31,772 bases of DNA from Bacteroidota bacterium (GTDB taxonomy: Bacteria; Bacteroidota; Bacteroidia; B-17B0; Aurantibacillaceae): positions 1 to 31,772 of the forward strand of contig JBKDJY010000081.1 of assembly GCA_046345275.1 (NCBI GenBank). Reading direction: 5' to 3'. The notes under the pieces are model-generated. The model searched no databases. It worked only from the letters and a program-made list of their open reading frames with translations, and was not told the DNA's origin. A program made the position numbers and the translations under genes. Of this stretch, positions 15,826 to 23,024 are shown one piece after another. Numbering within the stretch: position 1 is the stretch's first letter; the number at the start of each line of letters is the position of its first letter.

Positions 15826-18432
15826 ATGATAGATAAAAAAACACTTTCTGAACGTGATATTTGCACCAAGTTTATTACTCCTGCGGTTGAAAAAGCGGGT
15901 TGGAATAGACTGACACAGCTATTGGAGGAAGTTTCGTTCACGGACGGAAAAATTTATGTTAGAGGTAAACTAACGGCAAGAAGCAATAAAAAACGCGCCG
16001 ACTACATCCTGTATTTTAAACCCAACATTCCTGTTGCAATTATTGAAGCGAAAGACAATAAACATTCGGTGAGAGCCGGTATTCAACAGGCTTTGGACTA
16101 TGCTCAAATACTCGACATTCCTTGTGTTTTCAGCAGCAACGGTGACGGCTTTTTATTTCACGACCGCACGGCAACAGACGGAAATATTGAAACCGAAATT
16201 GCTATTGACGACTTTCCTACTCCCGAACAACTTTGGGAGAAATACAAAAAATACAAAGGCATCACAACGCCAACGGCTGAAAAAATTGCTTCGCAAGATT
16301 ATTACTTTGATGGAACAAACCGCAAACCAAGATACTATCAACAAATTGCAGTAAACAGAACTGTTGAAGCCATTGCCAACGAACAGAACCGAATTATTCT
16401 AGTAATGGCAACAGGTACAGGTAAAACTTATACTGCTTTTCAAATTATTTACCGTTTATGGAAATCAAGAAGTAAAAAAAGAATTTTGTTTCTTGCAGAC
16501 AGAACAGCTTTAATTGACCAAACAAGAAAGGGCGATTTTAAGCACTTTAAAGATAAAATGACTATCATTAAAAAGAAAGTCGTTTCTAACAAAGATGGTA
16601 AAGACGAACTAGTTTCCAATAAAAAAAGGGGAATTGATACTGAAGATAAAGCCTACGAAGTATTTCTTGGTTTATACCAAGGCTTAACTAATAATGAACC
16701 AGGTATTGAGGATGCTTATAAAGATTTTTCGCCTGACTTTTTTGACTTGATTGTAATTGACGAGTGTCACAGAGGAAGTGCAAAAGAAGACAGCAGTTGG
16801 AGAGAAATTTTATCCTATTTCAAAAACGCTACGCATATTGGTTTAACTGCCACGCCAAAGGAAACCAAAGAAACAAGCAACACCGAATATTTTGGTGACC
16901 CTGTTTATACCTATTCATTGAAACAAGGTATTGATGATGGTTTCCTTGCTCCTTATCGTGTAGTAAGAATTGGTTTGAATATAGATGCAGAAGGCTGGCG
17001 ACCAGATCAAGGCAAGACCGACAAAGATGGAAATGAATTTGAAGACAGAGTTTATAATCGCAAAGACTTTGACCGCAGTTTGGTAATTGAAGAACGAACA
17101 GACTTAGTTGCAAAAAAACTTACCGAGTTTTTAAAAGGTTACGACCGTTTTGCAAAAACGATTGTGTTTTGTGTGGACATTGACCACGCTGAACGAATGA
17201 GAACATCATTAGCCAAACAAAATGCTGATTTAGTTTCCGAGAATTACAAATACGTTATGCAAATAACTGGCGACAATGATGAAGGCAAACGGGAATTAGG
17301 CAACTTCATAAATCCTGAAGAAAAATATCCTGTCATTGCGACTACTTCTGAATTAATGACTACTGGCGTTGATGCTCAAACTTGTAAAGTAATTGTGTTG
17401 GATGCCAACATCAATTCAATGACCAAGTTCAAACAAATTATTGGTAGAGGAACGCGTATCAATGAAGAATTCGGAAAACTCTATTTCACCATTCTTGATT
17501 TTAGAAACGCAACCGATTTGTTTGCCGACAAAGATTTTGATGGCGACCCAATTCGAGTAAAACCAGTTTCGCAAGACGAAGATTTATCATTGGTGGTTAT
17601 TGAAGAAGAAGAAAACACTGTAACAGTTTTAGATGAAGCTACAGGCGAAGAAATTGTATTTGAAAAAGCACAAATTCGTTATCCTGATGGTTCAAAATTA
17701 GGAGGCAATTGGGTTGCTAGAGAACCTGATGCAAGAAGAGAAAAAATTTATGTAAATGGTGTTGATGTTTCTGTTTTGGTGAGCCGTGAAATATATTTTG
17801 ACCAACACGGAAAACCAATTACTACAAGTTTAAAAGACCATACCAAAGAAATCATCAAAGAAAACTTTGCTTCGTTAGATGACTTTTTAAATAAATGGAA
17901 CACCACCGCCCGCAAAGAAGCCATCATTGCTGAATTGCAAGAACAAGGCGTAATGGTGGAAGCTTTGTATGATGCCGTAAACAAAGACCTGCCCGCCTTT
18001 AAAGAAGGGAAATTTTATACTTATGTAATTGAATGCAAAGACGGAACTTTTTACAAAGGACATACACAAGATTTAAAAAGAAGATTTGATGAACACAAAA
18101 ATGGATTAGGAGCTGAATGGACTAAAAATCATAAAGTGAGAGATTTAGTTCATTTTGAAGTTTTTAATACAAAGGTAGAAGCAATTAATAGAGAAGATTA
18201 TTTTAAATCTGGTCGAGGTAGAGAATGGTTAAAAGCTGAAAGAGAGAAAGGATTGTTGAACGGCAGGCAGGCGGGAGTGGATTTGTTCGACTTGATTTGT
18301 CACGTTGCATTTGACCAACCACCATTAACACGCCAGGAAAGAGCCAATAACGTAAAAAAGCGAAACTATTTTACCAAGTATGGGCGACCAAGCCAAAAAA
18401 GTATTAGAGGCCTTGTTAGACAAATACGCTGA
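15826..18432 (+). CDS. hsdR: Type I restriction enzyme R subunit (EcoEI-like), main reading frame; carries an internal GIY-YIG insert and ends prematurely after a frameshift
   Basis: N-terminal PD-(D/E)xK nuclease region (ADYILY...AIIEAKD). SF2 motor motifs are MATGTGKT, VIDECHRG and QIIGRGTR. The C-terminal domain begins EcoEI_R_C-like (DLFDLICHVAFDQPPLTRQERA). From about 18382 the frame reads unrelated residues (GRPSQKSIRGLVRQIR*). Confidence 0.9.
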   Translation: MIDKKTLSERDICTKFITPAVEKAGWNRLTQLLEEVSFTDGKIYVRGKLTARSNKKRADYILYFKPNIPVAIIEAKDNKHSVRAGIQQALDYAQILDIPCVFSSNGDGFLFHDRTATDGNIETEIAIDDFPTPEQLWEKYKKYKGITTPTAEKIASQDYYFDGTNRKPRYYQQIAVNRTVEAIANEQNRIILVMATGTGKTYTAFQIIYRLWKSRSKKRILFLADRTALIDQTRKGDFKHFKDKMTIIKKKVVSNKDGKDELVSNKKRGIDTEDKAYEVFLGLYQGLTNNEPGIEDAYKDFSPDFFDLIVIDECHRGSAKEDSSWREILSYFKNATHIGLTATPKETKETSNTEYFGDPVYTYSLKQGIDDGFLAPYRVVRIGLNIDAEGWRPDQGKTDKDGNEFEDRVYNRKDFDRSLVIEERTDLVAKKLTEFLKGYDRFAKTIVFCVDIDHAERMRTSLAKQNADLVSENYKYVMQITGDNDEGKRELGNFINPEEKYPVIATTSELMTTGVDAQTCKVIVLDANINSMTKFKQIIGRGTRINEEFGKLYFTILDFRNATDLFADKDFDGDPIRVKPVSQDEDLSLVVIEEEENTVTVLDEATGEEIVFEKAQIRYPDGSKLGGNWVAREPDARREKIYVNGVDVSVLVSREIYFDQHGKPITTSLKDHTKEIIKENFASLDDFLNKWNTTARKEAIIAELQEQGVMVEALYDAVNKDLPAFKEGKFYTYVIECKDGTFYKGHTQDLKRRFDEHKNGLGAEWTKNHKVRDLVHFEVFNTKVEAINREDYFKSGRGREWLKAEREKGLLNGRQAGVDLFDLICHVAFDQPPLTRQERANNVKKRNYFTKYGRPSQKSIRGLVRQIR
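17988..18277 (+). mobile_element. In-frame GIY-YIG nuclease module (about 96 codons) inserted in hsdR, bounded by GC-rich imperfect inverted repeats
   Basis: The translation KFYTYVIECKDGTFYKGHTQDLKRRFDEHKNGLGAEWTK...FNTKVEAINREDYFK has the GIY..YIG..R..E layout. The insert is visibly more AT-rich than the flanking hsdR. The termini cctgcccgcc (17988-17997) and ggcaggcagg (18262-18271) pair 9/10. Confidence 0.6.
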
Positions 18433-18592
18433 TGAAGGCATCACAAATATTGAAAGCATTGAAGTATTGAGAGTAAATCCATTTGATGAATTTGGAAGTC
18501 CTATGGAAATTTTCAGTGAGTTTGGAAGCAAAGAAAATTATTTGCAAGCCGTAAAAGAATTAGAAATTGAATTGTATAAAAATATAGGATAG
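18380..18592 (+). CDS. hsdR: C-terminal remainder of HsdR (rest of the EcoEI_R_C-type domain) in the next reading frame
   Basis: GDQAKKVLEALLDKYADEGITNIESIEVLRVNPFDEFGSPMEIFSEFGSKENYLQAVKELEIELY continues the domain begun in the upstream frame. Removing one G from GGG at 18382-18384 joins ...FTKYG to DQAKKV. Confidence 0.8.
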   Translation: MGDQAKKVLEALLDKYADEGITNIESIEVLRVNPFDEFGSPMEIFSEFGSKENYLQAVKELEIELYKNIG

Positions 18593-18600
18593 ATAAATTG

Positions 18601-18656: not shown

Positions 18657-19094
18657 ATGCCATTTGTTAAAGTATATATCCATTTTGTTTGGAGTACAAA
18701 AAATAGATATCCATTCTTAGATTCAAAAGAATTGAGACTTAAAACATGGAATCATATAAGAGAAAATGCCAAAGAGAAAGGAATTTTTATTGATTTCATA
18801 AATGGATATTCAGACCATTGCCATTGTTTAGTTTCATTAAGTATTGATCAGACTATTCAAAAAGTCATGCAATTGATTAAAGGTGAATCTTCCTATTGGA
18901 TAAACAAACACGGTTTGACAAAAGAAAAGTTTGAATGGCAAGATGAGTATTTTGCAGTTTCAGTTTCGGAATCTATAATTGACAAAGTCAGAGAATATAT
19001 TAAAAATCAAGAAGAGCATCATAGCAAAAAAACATTTCAGGAGGAATATGATGAATTTATTAGCAAATATGAATTTGAGAAATTTAAAGGATAA
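18657..19094 (+). CDS. IS200/IS605-like Y1 (HUH) transposase, REP-associated tyrosine transposase (RAYT) type
   Basis: 145 aa. N-terminus YIHFVWSTKNR. The HUH motif is in SDHCHCLVSL. KGESSYWIN is present, and the C-terminal helix EYIKNQEEHH carries the catalytic-Tyr signature (YI..Q). Inverted REP hairpins flank the gene. Confidence 0.85.
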   Translation: MPFVKVYIHFVWSTKNRYPFLDSKELRLKTWNHIRENAKEKGIFIDFINGYSDHCHCLVSLSIDQTIQKVMQLIKGESSYWINKHGLTKEKFEWQDEYFAVSVSESIIDKVREYIKNQEEHHSKKTFQEEYDEFISKYEFEKFKG

Positions 19095-19096
19095 TA

Positions 19097-19255
19097 TTTT
19101 GGCTAAAGCCTATGAAGGAATTGAATTTATTTGTCCTCCTGCTAAAGCAGGAGGCAATTCAAAAGCAGGAGGCAATTCAAATTTCATTTCCTTTAATAGG
19201 AATGTGGCTTTAGCCCATTCCATTAAAAACAAATAAGTAAAAATGGCTTTAGCCA
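19097..19255. repeat. REP/BIME-like hairpin cluster on the right flank of the RAYT gene
   Basis: Elements seen: ttttggctaaagcctat (19097-19113); hairpin cctcctgc-taaa-gcaggagg (19135-19154); an 18-nt tandem duplication agcaggaggcaattcaaa x2 (19146-19181); hairpin ggaatgtggc-ttta-gcccattcc (19199-19221); palindrome tggctttagcca (19244-19255). Confidence 0.75.
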
Positions 19256-19272
19256 AACAAAATAACTAACAA

Positions 19273-20709
19273 ATGAGCAACATATCAGGCATAATAAAAA
19301 GCATTCAAAACATCATGTGGCAAGACACAGGCTTGAATGGCGACGCACAGCGCATTGAGCAATTAGGCTGGATGCTTTTTCTAAAAATATTTTCAGATAA
19401 AGACAAAGAGCTAGAGTTGCTGGACGACAAATACACATCTCCAATTCCCGACAAATTTCATTGGGTAAAAGAAAAAGGAAATTGGGCGGGTGATGATGAA
19501 GGCATGACAGGCGATGAATTGTTGGAGTTTGTAGACAGACAATTGTTTCCAGCACTTCGCAATTTAGATTTAAGCACCGGCAACCAACGTGCAGTAATTG
19601 TGAGAGAAGTATTTGAAGGCAACAACAACTATATGAAAAGCGGCATCAACATTCGCAAAGTGTTGAACAAGCTCAACGAAATTGATTTTAACATAGCCAA
19701 AGACCGCCACGCTTTTGGTGAATTGTACGAAATCATTTTAAAGGAATTACAAAGTGCAGGTAAAAGCGGAGAGTTTTATACGCCCAGAGCCATCACACAA
19801 TTTATTACCGAAACAATCAATCCGCAACTGGGCGAAAAAGTGCTTGACCCTGCTTGCGGAACAGGTGGTTATTTGACTTGTGCCATTGAGCATTTAAAAA
19901 AACAAGCTAAAAATGTAAAAGAACGCAAAAGTATTGAAGACAACATTGCAGGTTGGGAATACAAACCATTACCGTATTTGTTGGCAACAACCAATCTCAT
20001 TTTACACGACATTGAAATACCAAACATCAAATTTGGCGATGCTTTAGACCAACCGTTAAGCAACTTTACCGAAAAGCACCGAGTAAATGTCATATTAGCA
20101 AATCCGCCATTTGGTGGTATTGTAGCCAACAACAACGAAACTAATTTTCCACAAACTTATCGTACAAAAGAAAGTGCCGACTTGTTTTTAATTTTAATGA
20201 TTCACTTATTAAAGCAAGATGGACGAGCAGGAATTGTTTTGCCCGATGGCAGTTTAACAGGCGATGGCGTAAAGCAACGCATCCGACAAAAGTTGTTGGA
20301 AGATTGTAACCTACATACGATTATTCGTTTGCCAAATTCCGTTTTTCAACCTTACGCAACGGTGGCTACCAATTTGTTGTTTTTTGATAAGGGCAAACCC
20401 ACTAAAGACATTTGGTATTACGAACACCGTATGCCCGAAGGGTATAAAGCATACAACAAAACACGACCAATTAAAGTTGAAGAATTTGAACCGATTAAAA
20501 AATGGTGGAACAAACGCAAAGAAAGTGATATTGCGTGGAAAGTAAACATTAAAACGATTATTGAACGTGGTTACGATTTGGATATTAAGAATCCTACCAA
20601 ACCCGAAGAAGAAAAAGAATACAATAGTGCAGAGCTGATGGAAATGCTAAATGCTTCTTTTGAGAAAAGCCATCAATTGTTGAACCAACTTAAAAAGGCG
20701 ATGAAATGA
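19273..20709 (+). CDS. hsdM: Type I restriction-modification N6-adenine DNA methyltransferase subunit M
   Basis: 478 aa. HsdM N-terminal domain. The SAM motif is LDPACGTGGYL and the catalytic motif is LANPPFGG. Confidence 0.93.
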   Translation: MSNISGIIKSIQNIMWQDTGLNGDAQRIEQLGWMLFLKIFSDKDKELELLDDKYTSPIPDKFHWVKEKGNWAGDDEGMTGDELLEFVDRQLFPALRNLDLSTGNQRAVIVREVFEGNNNYMKSGINIRKVLNKLNEIDFNIAKDRHAFGELYEIILKELQSAGKSGEFYTPRAITQFITETINPQLGEKVLDPACGTGGYLTCAIEHLKKQAKNVKERKSIEDNIAGWEYKPLPYLLATTNLILHDIEIPNIKFGDALDQPLSNFTEKHRVNVILANPPFGGIVANNNETNFPQTYRTKESADLFLILMIHLLKQDGRAGIVLPDGSLTGDGVKQRIRQKLLEDCNLHTIIRLPNSVFQPYATVATNLLFFDKGKPTKDIWYYEHRMPEGYKAYNKTRPIKVEEFEPIKKWWNKRKESDIAWKVNIKTIIERGYDLDIKNPTKPEEEKEYNSAELMEMLNASFEKSHQLLNQLKKAMK

Positions 20710-21590
20710 GTTCGTCGTTAAAAATATCCATTCGTTTTTTTAATGATCGCGAAGTACGTGCCGTTTGGGATGAGCAAGATGCCAAATGGTGGTTTTCTGT
20801 ATTGGATGTTGTGGGTATTCTGAACGAAGAAAACGACTACAACAAAGTAAGGAACTATTGGAAATACCTCAAAGCCAAGTTAAAGAAAGAGAATAACGAA
20901 CTGGTTAGTGCCACTACCCAGTTGAAATTTTTAGCACCCGATGGCAAAATGCGTTTAGCAGATATGCTTGACAGCGATGGGGTAACCGCATTAGCTAAAA
21001 ATTTCCCCAACAATAGGGCAATGAAATTTTTAGATTGGTTTTTATACAGCGACACTAGCATTGACGGGCAAAGTAAGAAAAAAGCCTACACCTTGTTTGA
21101 AAGCAATTTGATAAACGAATTTGAGGTAGGCACCACCAAAGGTTTACAACAAATACACGCTTATTTGTTTGGTGGCTTGTATGAATTTGCCGGGCAAATT
21201 AGAGAAAAAAGCATTTCGAAAGGGGGCTATCAGTTTGTGTATGCACAGCAATTAAAAAACACTTTGCGAAAAATTGATGCCATGCCACAAACTACTTTGG
21301 ATGAAATTATTTTGAAATACACTGAAATGAACAAGGCACACCCCTTTATGGAAGGCAATGGCAGAAGCACCAGAATATGGCTGGATATGATGCTAAAAAA
21401 ACAACTTAAAAAATGTGTAGACTGGAGCAAAATAAAAAAAGATCAGTATATGAATGCCATGATAATTAGTACCGTTGATTACACGGTGCTACTGCAACTC
21501 ATTACAAAGGCGCTGACCCCTAAAATTAAGGACCGAGAAATGTATATGAAAGGCATTGATTATTCTTATTATTATGAGGAAAACAATTAA
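20706..21590 (+). CDS. Bro-N-like DNA-binding domain fused to a Fic (AMPylase/filamentation) domain
   Basis: 294 aa. The N-terminus FNDREVRAVWDEQDAKWWFSVLDVVGIL...YWKYLKAKLKKE...QLKFLAPDGKMRLAD is Bro-N/DinD-like. The C-terminus has the canonical Fic active site HPFMEGNGRSTR. The ATG overlaps the hsdM stop (ATGA). Confidence 0.85.
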   Translation: MSSSLKISIRFFNDREVRAVWDEQDAKWWFSVLDVVGILNEENDYNKVRNYWKYLKAKLKKENNELVSATTQLKFLAPDGKMRLADMLDSDGVTALAKNFPNNRAMKFLDWFLYSDTSIDGQSKKKAYTLFESNLINEFEVGTTKGLQQIHAYLFGGLYEFAGQIREKSISKGGYQFVYAQQLKNTLRKIDAMPQTTLDEIILKYTEMNKAHPFMEGNGRSTRIWLDMMLKKQLKKCVDWSKIKKDQYMNAMIISTVDYTVLLQLITKALTPKIKDREMYMKGIDYSYYYEENN

Positions 21591-21602: not shown

Positions 21603-23024
21603 ATGAGTTGGAAGAAAGTAAAGCTAAAGGAAATATTGAAACAATACCGAATAGAACTTTTGGTACAAAATGATATTGAATATAAACAAGTGACAATATC
21701 AAAATATGATGGTATCACTTTTAGAGGAACTAGAATAGGAAGAGAAATAGGGCGTAAAAGACAATTTCAAATTGACCTTAAAAGGTTTCCCAATACGTTA
21801 ATGTTCGTGAGGCAAGGTGTTCAAGATGGCTCAATAGGGATTGCACCGATCGAGGTTGAGGGTTGCATAGCAACTGAAAATATGCCAATGTTCTCCATTG
21901 AAGGAATAAATTTGGAATACCTAAAACTTCTTTTGAAGTCACCATATTTTAATGATGAATTAAATAAAATTCAAACAACTGGCTCAGCTCAAAAATCCAT
22001 TCATGAAAGAGAAATATTGGAAATTGAAATTCCATTTCCTGATTTTGAAGAGCAAGAAGATATTGTTCGCCAATTGTCAAGTAAAAAAAATAACTCATTA
22101 GAAATCTCAACTGAACTCAGCCACCAACTCACCTTAGTAAAAAAACTCCGACAGCAATTATTGCAGGATGCTGTGCAAGGCAAATTGGTGGCTCCCTCTC
22201 CTTTGGAGAGGGCGGGGGGAGAGGTCGAACCAGCAAGCGAATTGCTCAAAAAGATAAAGGAGGAACGCCTGAATAGGGTTGGGTTTCAACCCGACCCCAA
22301 AAAAGATATTGGGCTAAAGCCCAACAAATTTTCTAACCATAGCTCGGGGTTAAAACCCCGAGCTATTAAAGAACTACCACCCATCAAACCCGAAGATATT
22401 CCTTTTGAAATTCCTGAAAATTGGGTGTGGTGTAGGTTGGGGGAGATTGCAGAAATTGGAACAGGAGCAACTCCATTAACTTCAAATCCTGAATATTATG
22501 AGAATGGAGACATTCCTTGGATTACAAGTTCAGCTACTAATAATTTATTTATAATTGAACCAGAATTATATATTACCGAAAAGGCATTAAAAGAGACAAA
22601 TTGCAAGGTTTACCCCGCAGGAACTTTAGTTGTCGCTATGTATGGACAAGGTAAAACTAGGGGTCAAATCACCGAATTGAATTTCCCTGCTGCAACTAAT
22701 CAAGCTTGTGCCACAATTACTTTATTTTTTAATGAATTCACTTTGAGAAAATATGTGAAATTGTTTTTTCAAAAAATCTATAATGAAATTAGAGAATTGG
22801 CGCAAGGTGGAGCACAACCAAATTTGAATATGGGAAAGGTTAGAGATACTATAATTTCCCTTCCTCCACTTGCAGAACAAAACCGAATCGTTCAAAAATT
22901 AGACGAGCTAATGCAGTATTGCAATGAGTTAGAAACAAGCATCAAACAAAGTGAATCGCAAAATTCAACACTACTGCAACAGGTTTTGAAAGAAGCATTG
23001 AGGAAAGAACCTTTGGAGGTGTAA
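21603..23024 (+). CDS. hsdS: Type I restriction-modification specificity subunit S
   Basis: 473 aa. Two target-recognition domains are separated by a conserved helical spacer (LRQQLLQDAVQGKLV ... EPASELLKKIKEE ... IPFEIPENWVWCRLGEI). A second conserved helix lies at the C-terminus (LAEQNRIVQKLDELMQYCNELE). Confidence 0.9.
   Translation: MSWKKVKLKEILKQYRIELLVQNDIEYKQVTISKYDGITFRGTRIGREIGRKRQFQIDLKRFPNTLMFVRQGVQDGSIGIAPIEVEGCIATENMPMFSIEGINLEYLKLLLKSPYFNDELNKIQTTGSAQKSIHEREILEIEIPFPDFEEQEDIVRQLSSKKNNSLEISTELSHQLTLVKKLRQQLLQDAVQGKLVAPSPLERAGGEVEPASELLKKIKEERLNRVGFQPDPKKDIGLKPNKFSNHSSGLKPRAIKELPPIKPEDIPFEIPENWVWCRLGEIAEIGTGATPLTSNPEYYENGDIPWITSSATNNLFIIEPELYITEKALKETNCKVYPAGTLVVAMYGQGKTRGQITELNFPAATNQACATITLFFNEFTLRKYVKLFFQKIYNEIRELAQGGAQPNLNMGKVRDTIISLPPLAEQNRIVQKLDELMQYCNELETSIKQSESQNSTLLQQVLKEALRKEPLEV
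22193..22363. repeat. Four REP-like hairpins embedded in-frame in the hsdS central spacer
   Basis: Hairpins: ccctctcc-ttt-ggagaggg (22193-22211); gggttgggtt-tc-aacccgaccc (22275-22296, one G.T); ttgggc-taaa-gcccaa (22308-22323); agctcggggtt-aa-aaccccgagct (22340-22363, perfect 11 bp). The third shares the GGC-TAAA-GCC core of the RAYT-flanking REPs. Confidence 0.75.

Follow-up and report, generated by a model that had tools for sequence, protein, structure and literature searches.

The stretch of DNA analyzed here (hereafter the window) is a 31,772-nt contig, JBKDJY010000081.1, from a Bacteroidota bacterium, and it contains a locus in which hsdR is followed, in this order, by an IS200-like Y1 transposase gene, hsdM, a Fic/Bro-N gene and hsdS. 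The product of hsdR has the make-up of the R subunit of a type I restriction enzyme, with HSDR_N, a superfamily 2 (SF2) motor and a C-terminal EcoEI_R_C domain, and the gene adjoins hsdM and hsdS. Within the part of hsdR that encodes EcoEI_R_C lies a short segment encoding a GIY-YIG nuclease module, which an earlier note, made from the window sequence alone, had described as an in-frame insertion at 17988-18277 and had read either as a mobile mini-element or as a domain acquisition that gives the R subunit a second nuclease. The comparisons reported here indicate that the segment (17988-18275) is probably a copy of a widespread family of hairpin-ended mobile GIY-YIG elements, translated as a domain of its host protein.

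The insertion in hsdR and its ends

The junction was set by comparing empty hsdR alleles (L003 and L004) with filled ones (the window, L001, L005 and L006); L and P numbers are our handles for loci and contigs. The empty alleles read AAAGA^AGTGGAT, where the caret marks the junction (in a fuller stretch, GTGAACAAAGA^AGTGGATTTG), and the filled alleles read AAAGA^CCTGCCCGCC...GGCAGGCGGG^AGTGGAT, with the insertion point after the second base of a codon. The in-frame insertion described in the earlier note was thereby confirmed and its bounds were corrected to exactly 17988-18275. Since the dinucleotide GA directly to the left of the junction is found in the empty hsdR allele, it is part of the target and not of the element. 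The possibility of an assembly artefact was rejected, the identical junction being present in independent JGI, ENA and Logan assemblies.

The right end GGCAGGCGGG^ was conserved in all four of the filled alleles compared, and the first and last ten bases of the element were conserved across hsdR copies with proteins only 59-80% identical. The left repeat CCTGCCCGCC pairs with positions 18262-18271 at 9 of 10 positions, as had been pointed out before, and, when set flush with the ends (18266-18275), it forms eight Watson-Crick pairs and one G-T pair. Taken alone, the 10-mer pairing is weak evidence (2 matches against 0.26 expected, with 3 of 100 shuffles reaching 2); it is significant because the same ends are conserved in diverged copies and because rare codons are used there. 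In this AT-rich genome these end codons include CTG (4% of Leu), CAG (15% of Gln) and AGG (11% of Arg), and their joint probability is 2.4e-7 under the codon usage of the window, which argues that the DNA sequence itself is under constraint. Fold predictions for each of the two single strands pair the terminal arms with each other. The guanine plus cytosine (GC) content is 29% in the interior of the element, compared to 37% in hsdR and 33% in the window, and 86-90% at the ends; the AT-richness that had been noted is real, and modest rather than much greater than that of the surroundings. Only one of the six reading frames of the element is open.

A predicted GIY-YIG nuclease domain

The 96 codons from 17989 to 18276 contain no stop and, when searched alone, matched PF01541 with 55.2 bits (cut-off 22.6; E 8.9e-15), which bears out the assignment to GIY-YIG in an uninterrupted frame. 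In the whole HsdR, the Pfam match to EcoEI_R_C falls into two stretches, one on either side of the GIY-YIG match at residues 729-795. An alignment of 20 diverged copies of the module showed that Tyr12, Tyr22, Gly24, Arg32, His36, Arg68 and Glu69 are invariant, and C, Y, G, R, H and E are invariant across the modules of 110 host proteins. No invariant Asn follows Glu69 in the alignment of the 20 module copies, which contained neither UvrC nor I-TevI; the UPF0213/Slx1-like branch is known to lack the C-terminal conserved Asn of the branch that holds UvrC and the homing enzymes (PMC1564403).

The ratio of nonsynonymous to synonymous substitution rates (dN/dS) between hsdR inserts was 0.07-0.25, and up to 0.45 in comparison to the most diverged copy (L006); these values are similar to those of the host hsdR genes (0.06-0.11). 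Judged from these ratios, the nuclease open reading frame (ORF) is under purifying selection.

The modelled module is a compact beta-beta-alpha-alpha-beta-alpha-alpha fold (strands 9-16, 21-26 and 50-59; helices 29-37, 43-47, 62-73 and 75-86) with a mean predicted local distance difference test (pLDDT) of 88, so that, as the earlier note had proposed to examine, the module is predicted with confidence to fold on its own. The same fold was obtained for the module within a model of the full HsdR (pLDDT 85-90 for the module and 51 overall), and this poor full-length model places it between two predicted helices of HsdR. The nearest structures by phmmer were the UPF0213 proteins 1ywl (1.9e-12) and 1zg2 (5.5e-11), and Foldseek ranked 1zg2 and 1ywl first and then Slx1, a structure-specific nuclease (6seh and 7cq2), in keeping with the URI/UPF0213-like fold suggested earlier. 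Overall, sequence and model show that the insert encodes a complete UPF0213/Slx1-like GIY-YIG domain and a functional-looking nuclease.

Patchy distribution among HsdR homologues

Among the 120 best HsdR homologues, 114 (~95%) lack the segment and read ...AVNKE^VDLFDLICH..., so that most close relatives are empty at exactly the junction that the earlier note had singled out. Six intact carrier proteins of 893-900 residues, plus fragments, read ...AVNK(D/H)^LPA...GRQAG^VDLFDLICH.... The carriers are scattered, each sharing more identity with insert-less HsdR proteins (up to 93-94%) than with other carriers (78-92%). By another count, ~114 of 121 close homologues are empty, and the seven carriers have 93% identity to non-carriers and 78-90% to one another. 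By synonymous divergence (dS), the window hsdR is nearest to an empty allele (0.52); apart from the near-identical L088 (0.087), the other carriers lie at 0.74-2.7. These relationships would be explained either by repeated invasion, by precise loss or by recombination between alleles.

A metagenome scan with the window insert yielded seven loci; the hosts were determined for two of these, L088 and L089, and both are hsdR, while L090-L094 have 42-51% identity. A scan of viral contigs found no relative, and a plasmid scan found only distant free-standing UPF0213 genes (at most 49% identity).

The module inside unrelated genes across bacteria

A word-indexed search with the insert alone gave one relative, whereas HMMER, run exhaustively against 1.84 billion cluster representatives, gave 6628 relatives at E<=1e-3, of which 348 had E<=1e-10. 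The 150 best proteins contained the module 151 times, in 139 cases with 15 or more host residues on either side, and the usual boundaries were ...D^LPAP(R/Q)PG...G(R)xRQAG^.... HsdS accounted for 75 of the 110 nearest hosts, with the insert at ...QDPND^...^EPASVLLE..., and the others included HsdR, a pseudouridine synthase, trigger factor, MsrB, TfoX and PD-(D/E)XK proteins.

Genomes, one for each species, were scanned with a single 8-residue pattern, which samples only copies with the exact peptide KTGFGRKW. The scan gave 121 confirmed loci, and the 80 that were kept came from more than ten phyla, including Desulfobacterota, Nitrospirota, Patescibacteria, Verrucomicrobiota, Planctomycetota, Bacteroidota, Acidobacteriota and Bipolaricaulota, with one locus labelled archaeal. 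At these loci 78 of 81 modules were embedded in ORFs of 132-1307 residues. The hosts confirmed by Pfam were UvrB, DnaG, alanyl-, arginyl- and leucyl-tRNA synthetases, TrmD, MsrB, O6-methylguanine methyltransferase (MGMT), RibD_C, an AMP-binding enzyme, a SET-domain protein, HsdS, DUF1156 methylases and SNF2 helicases; HsdM was also among the hosts. In addition, two more HsdR families (HindI-like and EcoR124-like) hold the module, at positions that differ from that in the window. None of the three outcomes that the earlier note had named as refuting was seen: the segment is absent from most close HsdR proteins, the insert has a clear GIY-YIG profile match, and many copies with conserved GC-rich termini are present inside other ORFs.

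Several of these loci deserve separate description. A subfamily from Bacteroidota and Acidobacteriota lacks the LPAP/RQAG ends, is bounded by ...PVCV(Q)RTGRK... and ...GRN(K/R)..., and always follows the HSDR_N domain of HindI-like HsdR proteins (L028, L033, L044, L050, L055, L056, L067, L070, L074, L078, L079 and L082-L084); the cultured strain Tangfeifania diversioriginum DSM 27063 (L056) belongs to it. Two loci, L032 and P0122, each have a single HsdS gene with two diverged GIY-YIG modules, one for each conserved region. In a planctomycete metagenome-assembled genome, a 1307-residue DUF1156 methylase ORF (L057:2365-6285), surrounded by repeated GFQP-type peptide repeats, contains the module and, further on in the same frame, a whole IS200-like Y1 transposase; this Y1 domain was absent from the Pfam report at E<=1e-5, and tblastn with its peptide also matched L026. 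The L057 sequence suggests that the enzymes of other hairpin elements may likewise live in frame.

Shared ends, frame, target and miniature derivatives

Across 61 elements the left end reads ^CCTGCCTGCGCCGCG(R)CC and the right end GG(Y)CGCGGCAGGCAGG^, forming a terminal inverted repeat of 16-18 bp with a two-base bulge, of which the outer nine positions are nearly invariant. The window belongs to a subfamily with variant ends, ^CCTGCCCGCC and GGCAGGCAGGCGGG^, which correspond to CCTGCCTGCGCCGCG and CGCGGCAGGCAGG of the main family. The conserved peptide ends, LPA... and ...RQAG, are the translated terminal repeats. All 61 elements are 279-336 nt long, with lengths divisible by three, and share codon phase 2. 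That genic copies survive in one phase and orientation only is explained by the single open frame of the element. At the 46 sites outside HsdS, position -2 of the left flank was G in 38 and position -1 was A in 29 and G in 12; the right flank of these sites was not conserved, and no flank similarity extended beyond the left dinucleotide.

Palindromes of 18-39 nt that consist of the repeats only, with the same arms and mostly with lengths in multiples of three, were found within 3 kb of full copies in at least 10 loci. An identical 30-nt solo palindrome, CCTGCCTGCGCCGAGGCTTCGGCAGGCAGG, occurs in a planctomycete (L057, ~2311-2340) and in a bacteroidete (L070, ~1433-1462), and in P0125 a full copy is accompanied by one with an internal deletion. 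The solo palindromes and the deleted copy look like non-autonomous derivatives or footprints of the element.

The host gene and neighboring features

As shown in Table 1, the element divides hsdR into two parts, of which the upstream part is 83-93% identical to HsdR homologues of ~800 residues. Three-frame translations of the downstream part revealed a frameshift, absent from the earlier note, that is due to one extra base at ~18382-18385 (tatGGGCgac; region 18376-18392). The hsdR frame resumes at 18386 and ends with a stop codon at 18590-18592, the C-terminal 69 residues are in the other frame, and Pfam matched positions 103-163 of EcoEI_R_C in the shifted frame. At this site, relatives read YFTKYG-DQAKKVL. 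The frameshift is not typical of insert-bearing hsdR genes, because the metagenome contig L088, with 98.5% identical DNA, carries the same insert (99% identical) in an intact hsdR; judging from these sequences, it is strain-specific or a sequencing error. In a second carrier contig, P0001, hsdR is fragmented too.

Table 1. Features of the hsdR locus, with positions in the window
Feature	Position	Strand	Remarks
Inserted element	17988..18275	+	288 nt, 96 codons, codon phase 2; without start, stop or target-site duplication
Target dinucleotide GA	17986..17987	+	Directly 5' of the element; present in the empty allele, not duplicated
Left terminal repeat CCTGCCCGCC	17988..17997	+	Third base of Asp, then Leu-Pro-Ala; same in all diverged HsdR copies
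Right terminal repeat GGCAGGCAGGCGGG	18262..18275	+	Gly-Arg-Gln-Ala and first two bases of Gly
GIY-YIG catalytic core	18010..18210	+	PF01541 matches insert residues 8-74
Invariant residues	Tyr12 18022-18024; Tyr22 18052-18054; Arg32 18082-18084; His36 18094-18096; Arg68-Glu69 18190-18195	+	
Host hsdR ORF	15826-18432	+	HSDR_N, ResIII/SWI2_SNF2 and EcoEI_R_C by Pfam
hsdR part upstream of the insertion	15826..17987	+	HSDR_N, ResIII/SWI2-SNF2 motor, first part of EcoEI_R_C
hsdR part downstream of the insertion	18276..18592	+	Rest of EcoEI_R_C; carries a +1 frameshift
IS200-like Y1 transposase gene	18657-19094		Between hsdR and hsdM; Pfam Y1_Tnp, E 2e-28
hsdM	19273-20709		Identified from translation; homologue Pfam-annotated in syntenic L001
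hsdS	21603-23024		Identified from translation; homologue Pfam-annotated in syntenic L001

The Y1 transposase gene is flanked by short GGCTAAAGCC/GGCTTTAGCC palindromes, with hairpins at ~18634, 19100, 19207 and 19246, so that it resembles a REP/RAYT-type unit, and it occupies the same position in L001, L002, L007 and L088. The spacer between this gene and hsdM contains a tandem duplication (two copies of aaagcaggaggcaattc at 19137-19180), with a complementary arm, cctcctgct, upstream. A gene with Bro-N and Fic/DOC domains (20706-21590) is inserted between hsdM and hsdS, and comparable operon positions elsewhere hold GmrSD, RhuM, DUF1016 or SIR2 genes; these differing genes suggest that the type I operon carries a changing set of defence or toxin genes. 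Four small in-frame GC-rich palindromes lie in the central conserved region of the window hsdS (22190-22366). The first, CCCTCTCC..GGAGAGGG (peptide APSPLERAGGEV), stands directly before EPAS, at the spot where other HsdS proteins have GIY-YIG elements; the second is GGGTTG..CAACCC; the third, GGGCTAAAGCCC, repeats the motif found next to the Y1 transposase gene; and the fourth, ATAGCTCGGGGTT/AACCCCGAGCTAT, is perfect, with 13-bp arms.

A proposed model for a probable mobile element

As a piece of DNA, the element is discrete and ends in inverted repeats; it has entered many genes, is tolerated in one frame only, depends on its hosts for transcription and translation and keeps its nuclease intact. 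The earlier note's suggestion of a mobile GIY-YIG mini-element that spreads as an in-frame protein insertion is in this respect supported by the comparative data. In the model that we prefer, the element consists of GC-rich imperfect terminal inverted repeats around a single UPF0213/Slx1-like GIY-YIG ORF without a promoter, start or stop of its own, and its survival would be limited to insertions that have the sense orientation and codon phase 2 of the gene they enter. The host protein would thereby gain an additional domain that folds on its own within a loop, which for HsdR lies in EcoEI_R_C, and the segment would be spliced out neither from the RNA nor from the protein.

By analogy with the Ssn nucleases and with IS200/IS605, movement may occur through hairpin-guided single-strand transposition. 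First, the terminal repeats would pair on single-stranded DNA, such as the lagging-strand template or incoming transforming or conjugative DNA, so that the stem places the two ends side by side. The nuclease, supplied as part of the host protein, would then recognize the hairpin and nick at the base of the stem, as Ssn nucleases do. Finally, the element would be excised or copied, and host enzymes would join it 3' of a G-R dinucleotide elsewhere. Overall, such movement would resemble the 'peel and paste' of IS200/IS605, but with a hydrolytic nuclease as the enzyme, and spread among hsdR alleles may also use homologous recombination.

A number of observations weigh against the mobile-element interpretation. 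GIY-YIG enzymes hydrolyze DNA and are not known to join strands, as integration would require. No two near-identical copies were found in different genes of one genome, so that recent transposition, and movement itself, was not observed; no second copy and no solo repeat is present within the window. The window copy forms only a short terminal stem of 10 nt, which includes one mismatch, and the fold of the whole element is no better than that of shuffled sequence on both strands (z ~0). The nearest solved structures in both the sequence and the fold searches are UPF0213 proteins. Within hsdR, the divergence of the insert roughly parallels that of the host gene, which also fits one old insertion followed by losses or by allele recombination, and no signal of co-conversion was detected, flank identity among carriers not being raised over the 150 nt next to the junction. 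A domain that need only fold harmlessly in its host protein would likewise be expected to show purifying selection. In addition, the strong enrichment of hosts for restriction-modification and DNA-handling proteins could reflect function rather than parasitism, and homing by double-strand-break repair could be the source of the spread among hsdR and hsdS alleles.

Alternative explanations

In the strongest alternative, the insert is the gene of a site-specific homing endonuclease that stays in the protein. The enzyme would cut the empty hsdR sequence AAAGA^AGTGG as double-stranded DNA, and repair would copy the insert into it from a filled allele; the terminal repeats would be incidental linker-coding sequence, and the copies in other genes would represent separate homing lineages. 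This account, which we consider unlikely, fits the presence and absence of the insert at exactly one site among hsdR alleles of 78-93% identity with scattered carriers, it fits GIY-YIG as a classical homing-endonuclease fold, and the conserved regions of HsdS, the most frequent of the nearest hosts, recur within and between genomes. There is also a precedent in ShiLan, a homing insert that stays in frame without splicing and conceals an HNH nuclease (PMC11855218). On the other hand, the 96-residue module has no DNA-binding extension, while GIY-YIG homing enzymes need added DNA-binding domains (PMC1564403), and the dozens of unrelated targets share only a G-R dinucleotide flank, which would require transposition to new sites rather than homing. 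Homing likewise leaves unexplained that the ends are conserved as DNA inverted repeats and that repeat-only palindromes exist, and the flanks of carriers show no elevated identity beside the junction.

The second alternative is the adaptive fusion that the earlier note had entertained, in which a type I R subunit gained a second GIY-YIG nuclease, or a sensor of DNA structure, that was kept for better defence. Intact insert-bearing HsdR ORFs (893-900 residues) persist in several lineages, the insert is under apparent purifying selection and the hosts are strongly enriched in restriction-modification and DNA-repair proteins, all of which would be in line with a useful domain. We nevertheless regard this as very unlikely, although it keeps a small chance for HsdR taken alone, since most hosts have no evident role for a nuclease: the same module and the same DNA termini are found in MsrB, TrmD, tRNA synthetases, RibD_C and AMP-binding enzymes. 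Moreover, ~95% of the close HsdR homologues manage without the insert, the module takes at least three different positions in three HsdR families, two carrier hsdR genes (in the window and in the P0001 contig) are broken, and the authors who described such an insert in 2006 judged it to be probably irrelevant to HsdR function (PMC1564403).

It is highly improbable that the element is a REP-like hairpin element moved in trans by the neighboring IS200-like Y1 transposase, with the GIY-YIG ORF as passive cargo in the loop. A Y1_Tnp gene does lie between hsdR and hsdM in the insert-carrying window, L001, L002, L007, L088 and P0001, the host ORF of L057 holds both enzymes in frame, and IS200/IS605 and REP/RAYT share with the element hairpin ends, the lack of a target duplication and insertion 3' of a short motif. 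As a general driver, the Y1 transposase was rejected, because it was found within 3 kb at only 2 of the 80 genome loci and because the GGCTAAAGCC-type hairpins around the window gene differ from the element ends; the insert-bearing L005 has no Y1 transposase, and strong purifying selection with invariant catalytic residues is unexpected for passive cargo. An intein or a self-splicing intron, which would be removed to restore HsdR, has a vanishingly small chance, as the earlier note had also held. The insert does resemble inteins in being in frame, in a conserved gene and patchily distributed, but Pfam gave no match to a Hint or intein domain, Leu is its first residue and Ala-Gly its last two, with Val next, so that the nucleophilic Cys/Ser/Thr and the His-Asn are missing, and 96 residues are too few for a splicing domain plus a nuclease. 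An Rfam search of 17700-18600 gave no match at E<=1, the sequence is no more structured than its shuffled versions, and the ORF is uninterrupted.

Comparison with known systems

In 2006, Dunin-Horkawicz, Feder and Bujnicki reported a GIY-YIG domain in the HsdR of Methylococcus capsulatus (MCA0838), which they called unique, recent, probably unneeded for restriction and possibly parasitic (PMC1564403). As in the window, a Slx1/UPF0213-like GIY-YIG domain lies in a type I R subunit of which an 80%-identical homologue is without it; compared by description, MCA0838 differs in being a single case, at about residue 800, reported without DNA ends, a target, other hosts or a model of mobility (PMC1564403). 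The bare observation of a GIY-YIG domain inside HsdR is therefore already known, and the earlier note's view that the behavior is undescribed holds only for the family: we found no description of the family-wide pattern (ends, frame, target, derivatives and essential genes) in a literature search that missed most subscription journals.

The Ssn nucleases are GIY-YIG enzymes of ~94 residues whose genes are flanked by GC-rich NTS/SRM hairpin repeats and are called 'IS-like'; their cuts in single-stranded DNA lie at a constant distance from the hairpin, also when the hairpin is in two halves, and the paper makes no mention of in-frame copies (Chenal et al. 2025, PMC11893778). The two systems have in common a single GIY-YIG domain (~94 and 96 residues) associated with GC-rich hairpin-forming repeats. 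Whereas the Ssn genes are free-standing, the ORF described here sits between the arms of a single split hairpin, lacks both start and stop, and is read as part of its host proteins. The ends of the element are the halves of one inverted repeat and not two complete hairpins; complete solo hairpins are found near its relatives, and none in the window.

IS200/IS605 and REP/RAYT have hairpin ends, no target duplication, a one-sided motif and non-autonomous derivatives that consist of the hairpin only. The present element resembles them in its hairpin ends, in the absence of a target duplication and in insertion 3' of a short one-sided motif. It differs in that it has only a hydrolytic GIY-YIG enzyme and no expression signals, while theirs is an HUH Y1 tyrosine transposase with covalent intermediates and genes that are expressed on their own. 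Rickettsia palindromic elements (RPE) also insert in frame and encode no enzyme, in contrast to the present element, which carries a nuclease domain and occurs in many phyla; likened by description, the 18-39-nt solo palindromes are the closer analogue of the RPE than the full element. UPF0213 (YhbQ/YazA; 1ywl and 1zg2) and eukaryotic Slx1 have the nearest sequences and folds and the same catalytic residues, but they are independent genes, and Slx1 is fused to a RING-type domain. We know of no report of terminal inverted repeats, or of insertion inside other proteins, for free-standing UPF0213 or Slx1. Inteins and ShiLan are likewise selfish in-frame insertions with a patchy distribution among close homologues, and ShiLan is unspliced too; inteins differ by protein splicing, for which the present element has no residues, and the HNH nuclease of ShiLan is encoded in a frame other than that of its host, while here the nuclease is in the host frame (PMC11855218).

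Significance

There is a substantial chance that the pattern deserves the status of a new class. We put at about even the chance that these elements form an undescribed class of autonomous prokaryotic transposons, shorter than 350 bp and hairpin-ended, that are obliged to live as internal domains of host proteins, move as single-stranded DNA by means of their own Ssn-like nuclease and leave miniature palindromes in coding sequence. Such a class would be a nuclease-encoding counterpart of the Rickettsia palindromic elements, a non-splicing parasite at the protein level, and one that also invades essential genes, such as uvrB, dnaG and those of tRNA synthetases. Beside RNA splicing (introns) and protein splicing (inteins), it would add a third route by which selfish DNA persists in genes, namely by staying as a compact self-folding domain that relies on the host gene for its whole expression.

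If this is correct, it would explain many of the puzzling GIY-YIG 'fusions' in restriction-modification subunits, helicases, repair proteins and tRNA synthetases, and it would caution against taking these 'fusions' as functional domain architectures. Mobility would also supply a biological context for the hairpin-guided single-strand DNA nucleases, a family discovered only recently and now in development as tools. The elements identify a source for short GC-rich in-frame palindromes in coding sequences and mark natural sites in many proteins that are permissive for domain insertion. Finally, as the elements are concentrated in type I restriction-modification genes, they may influence how such defence systems evolve and become inactive.

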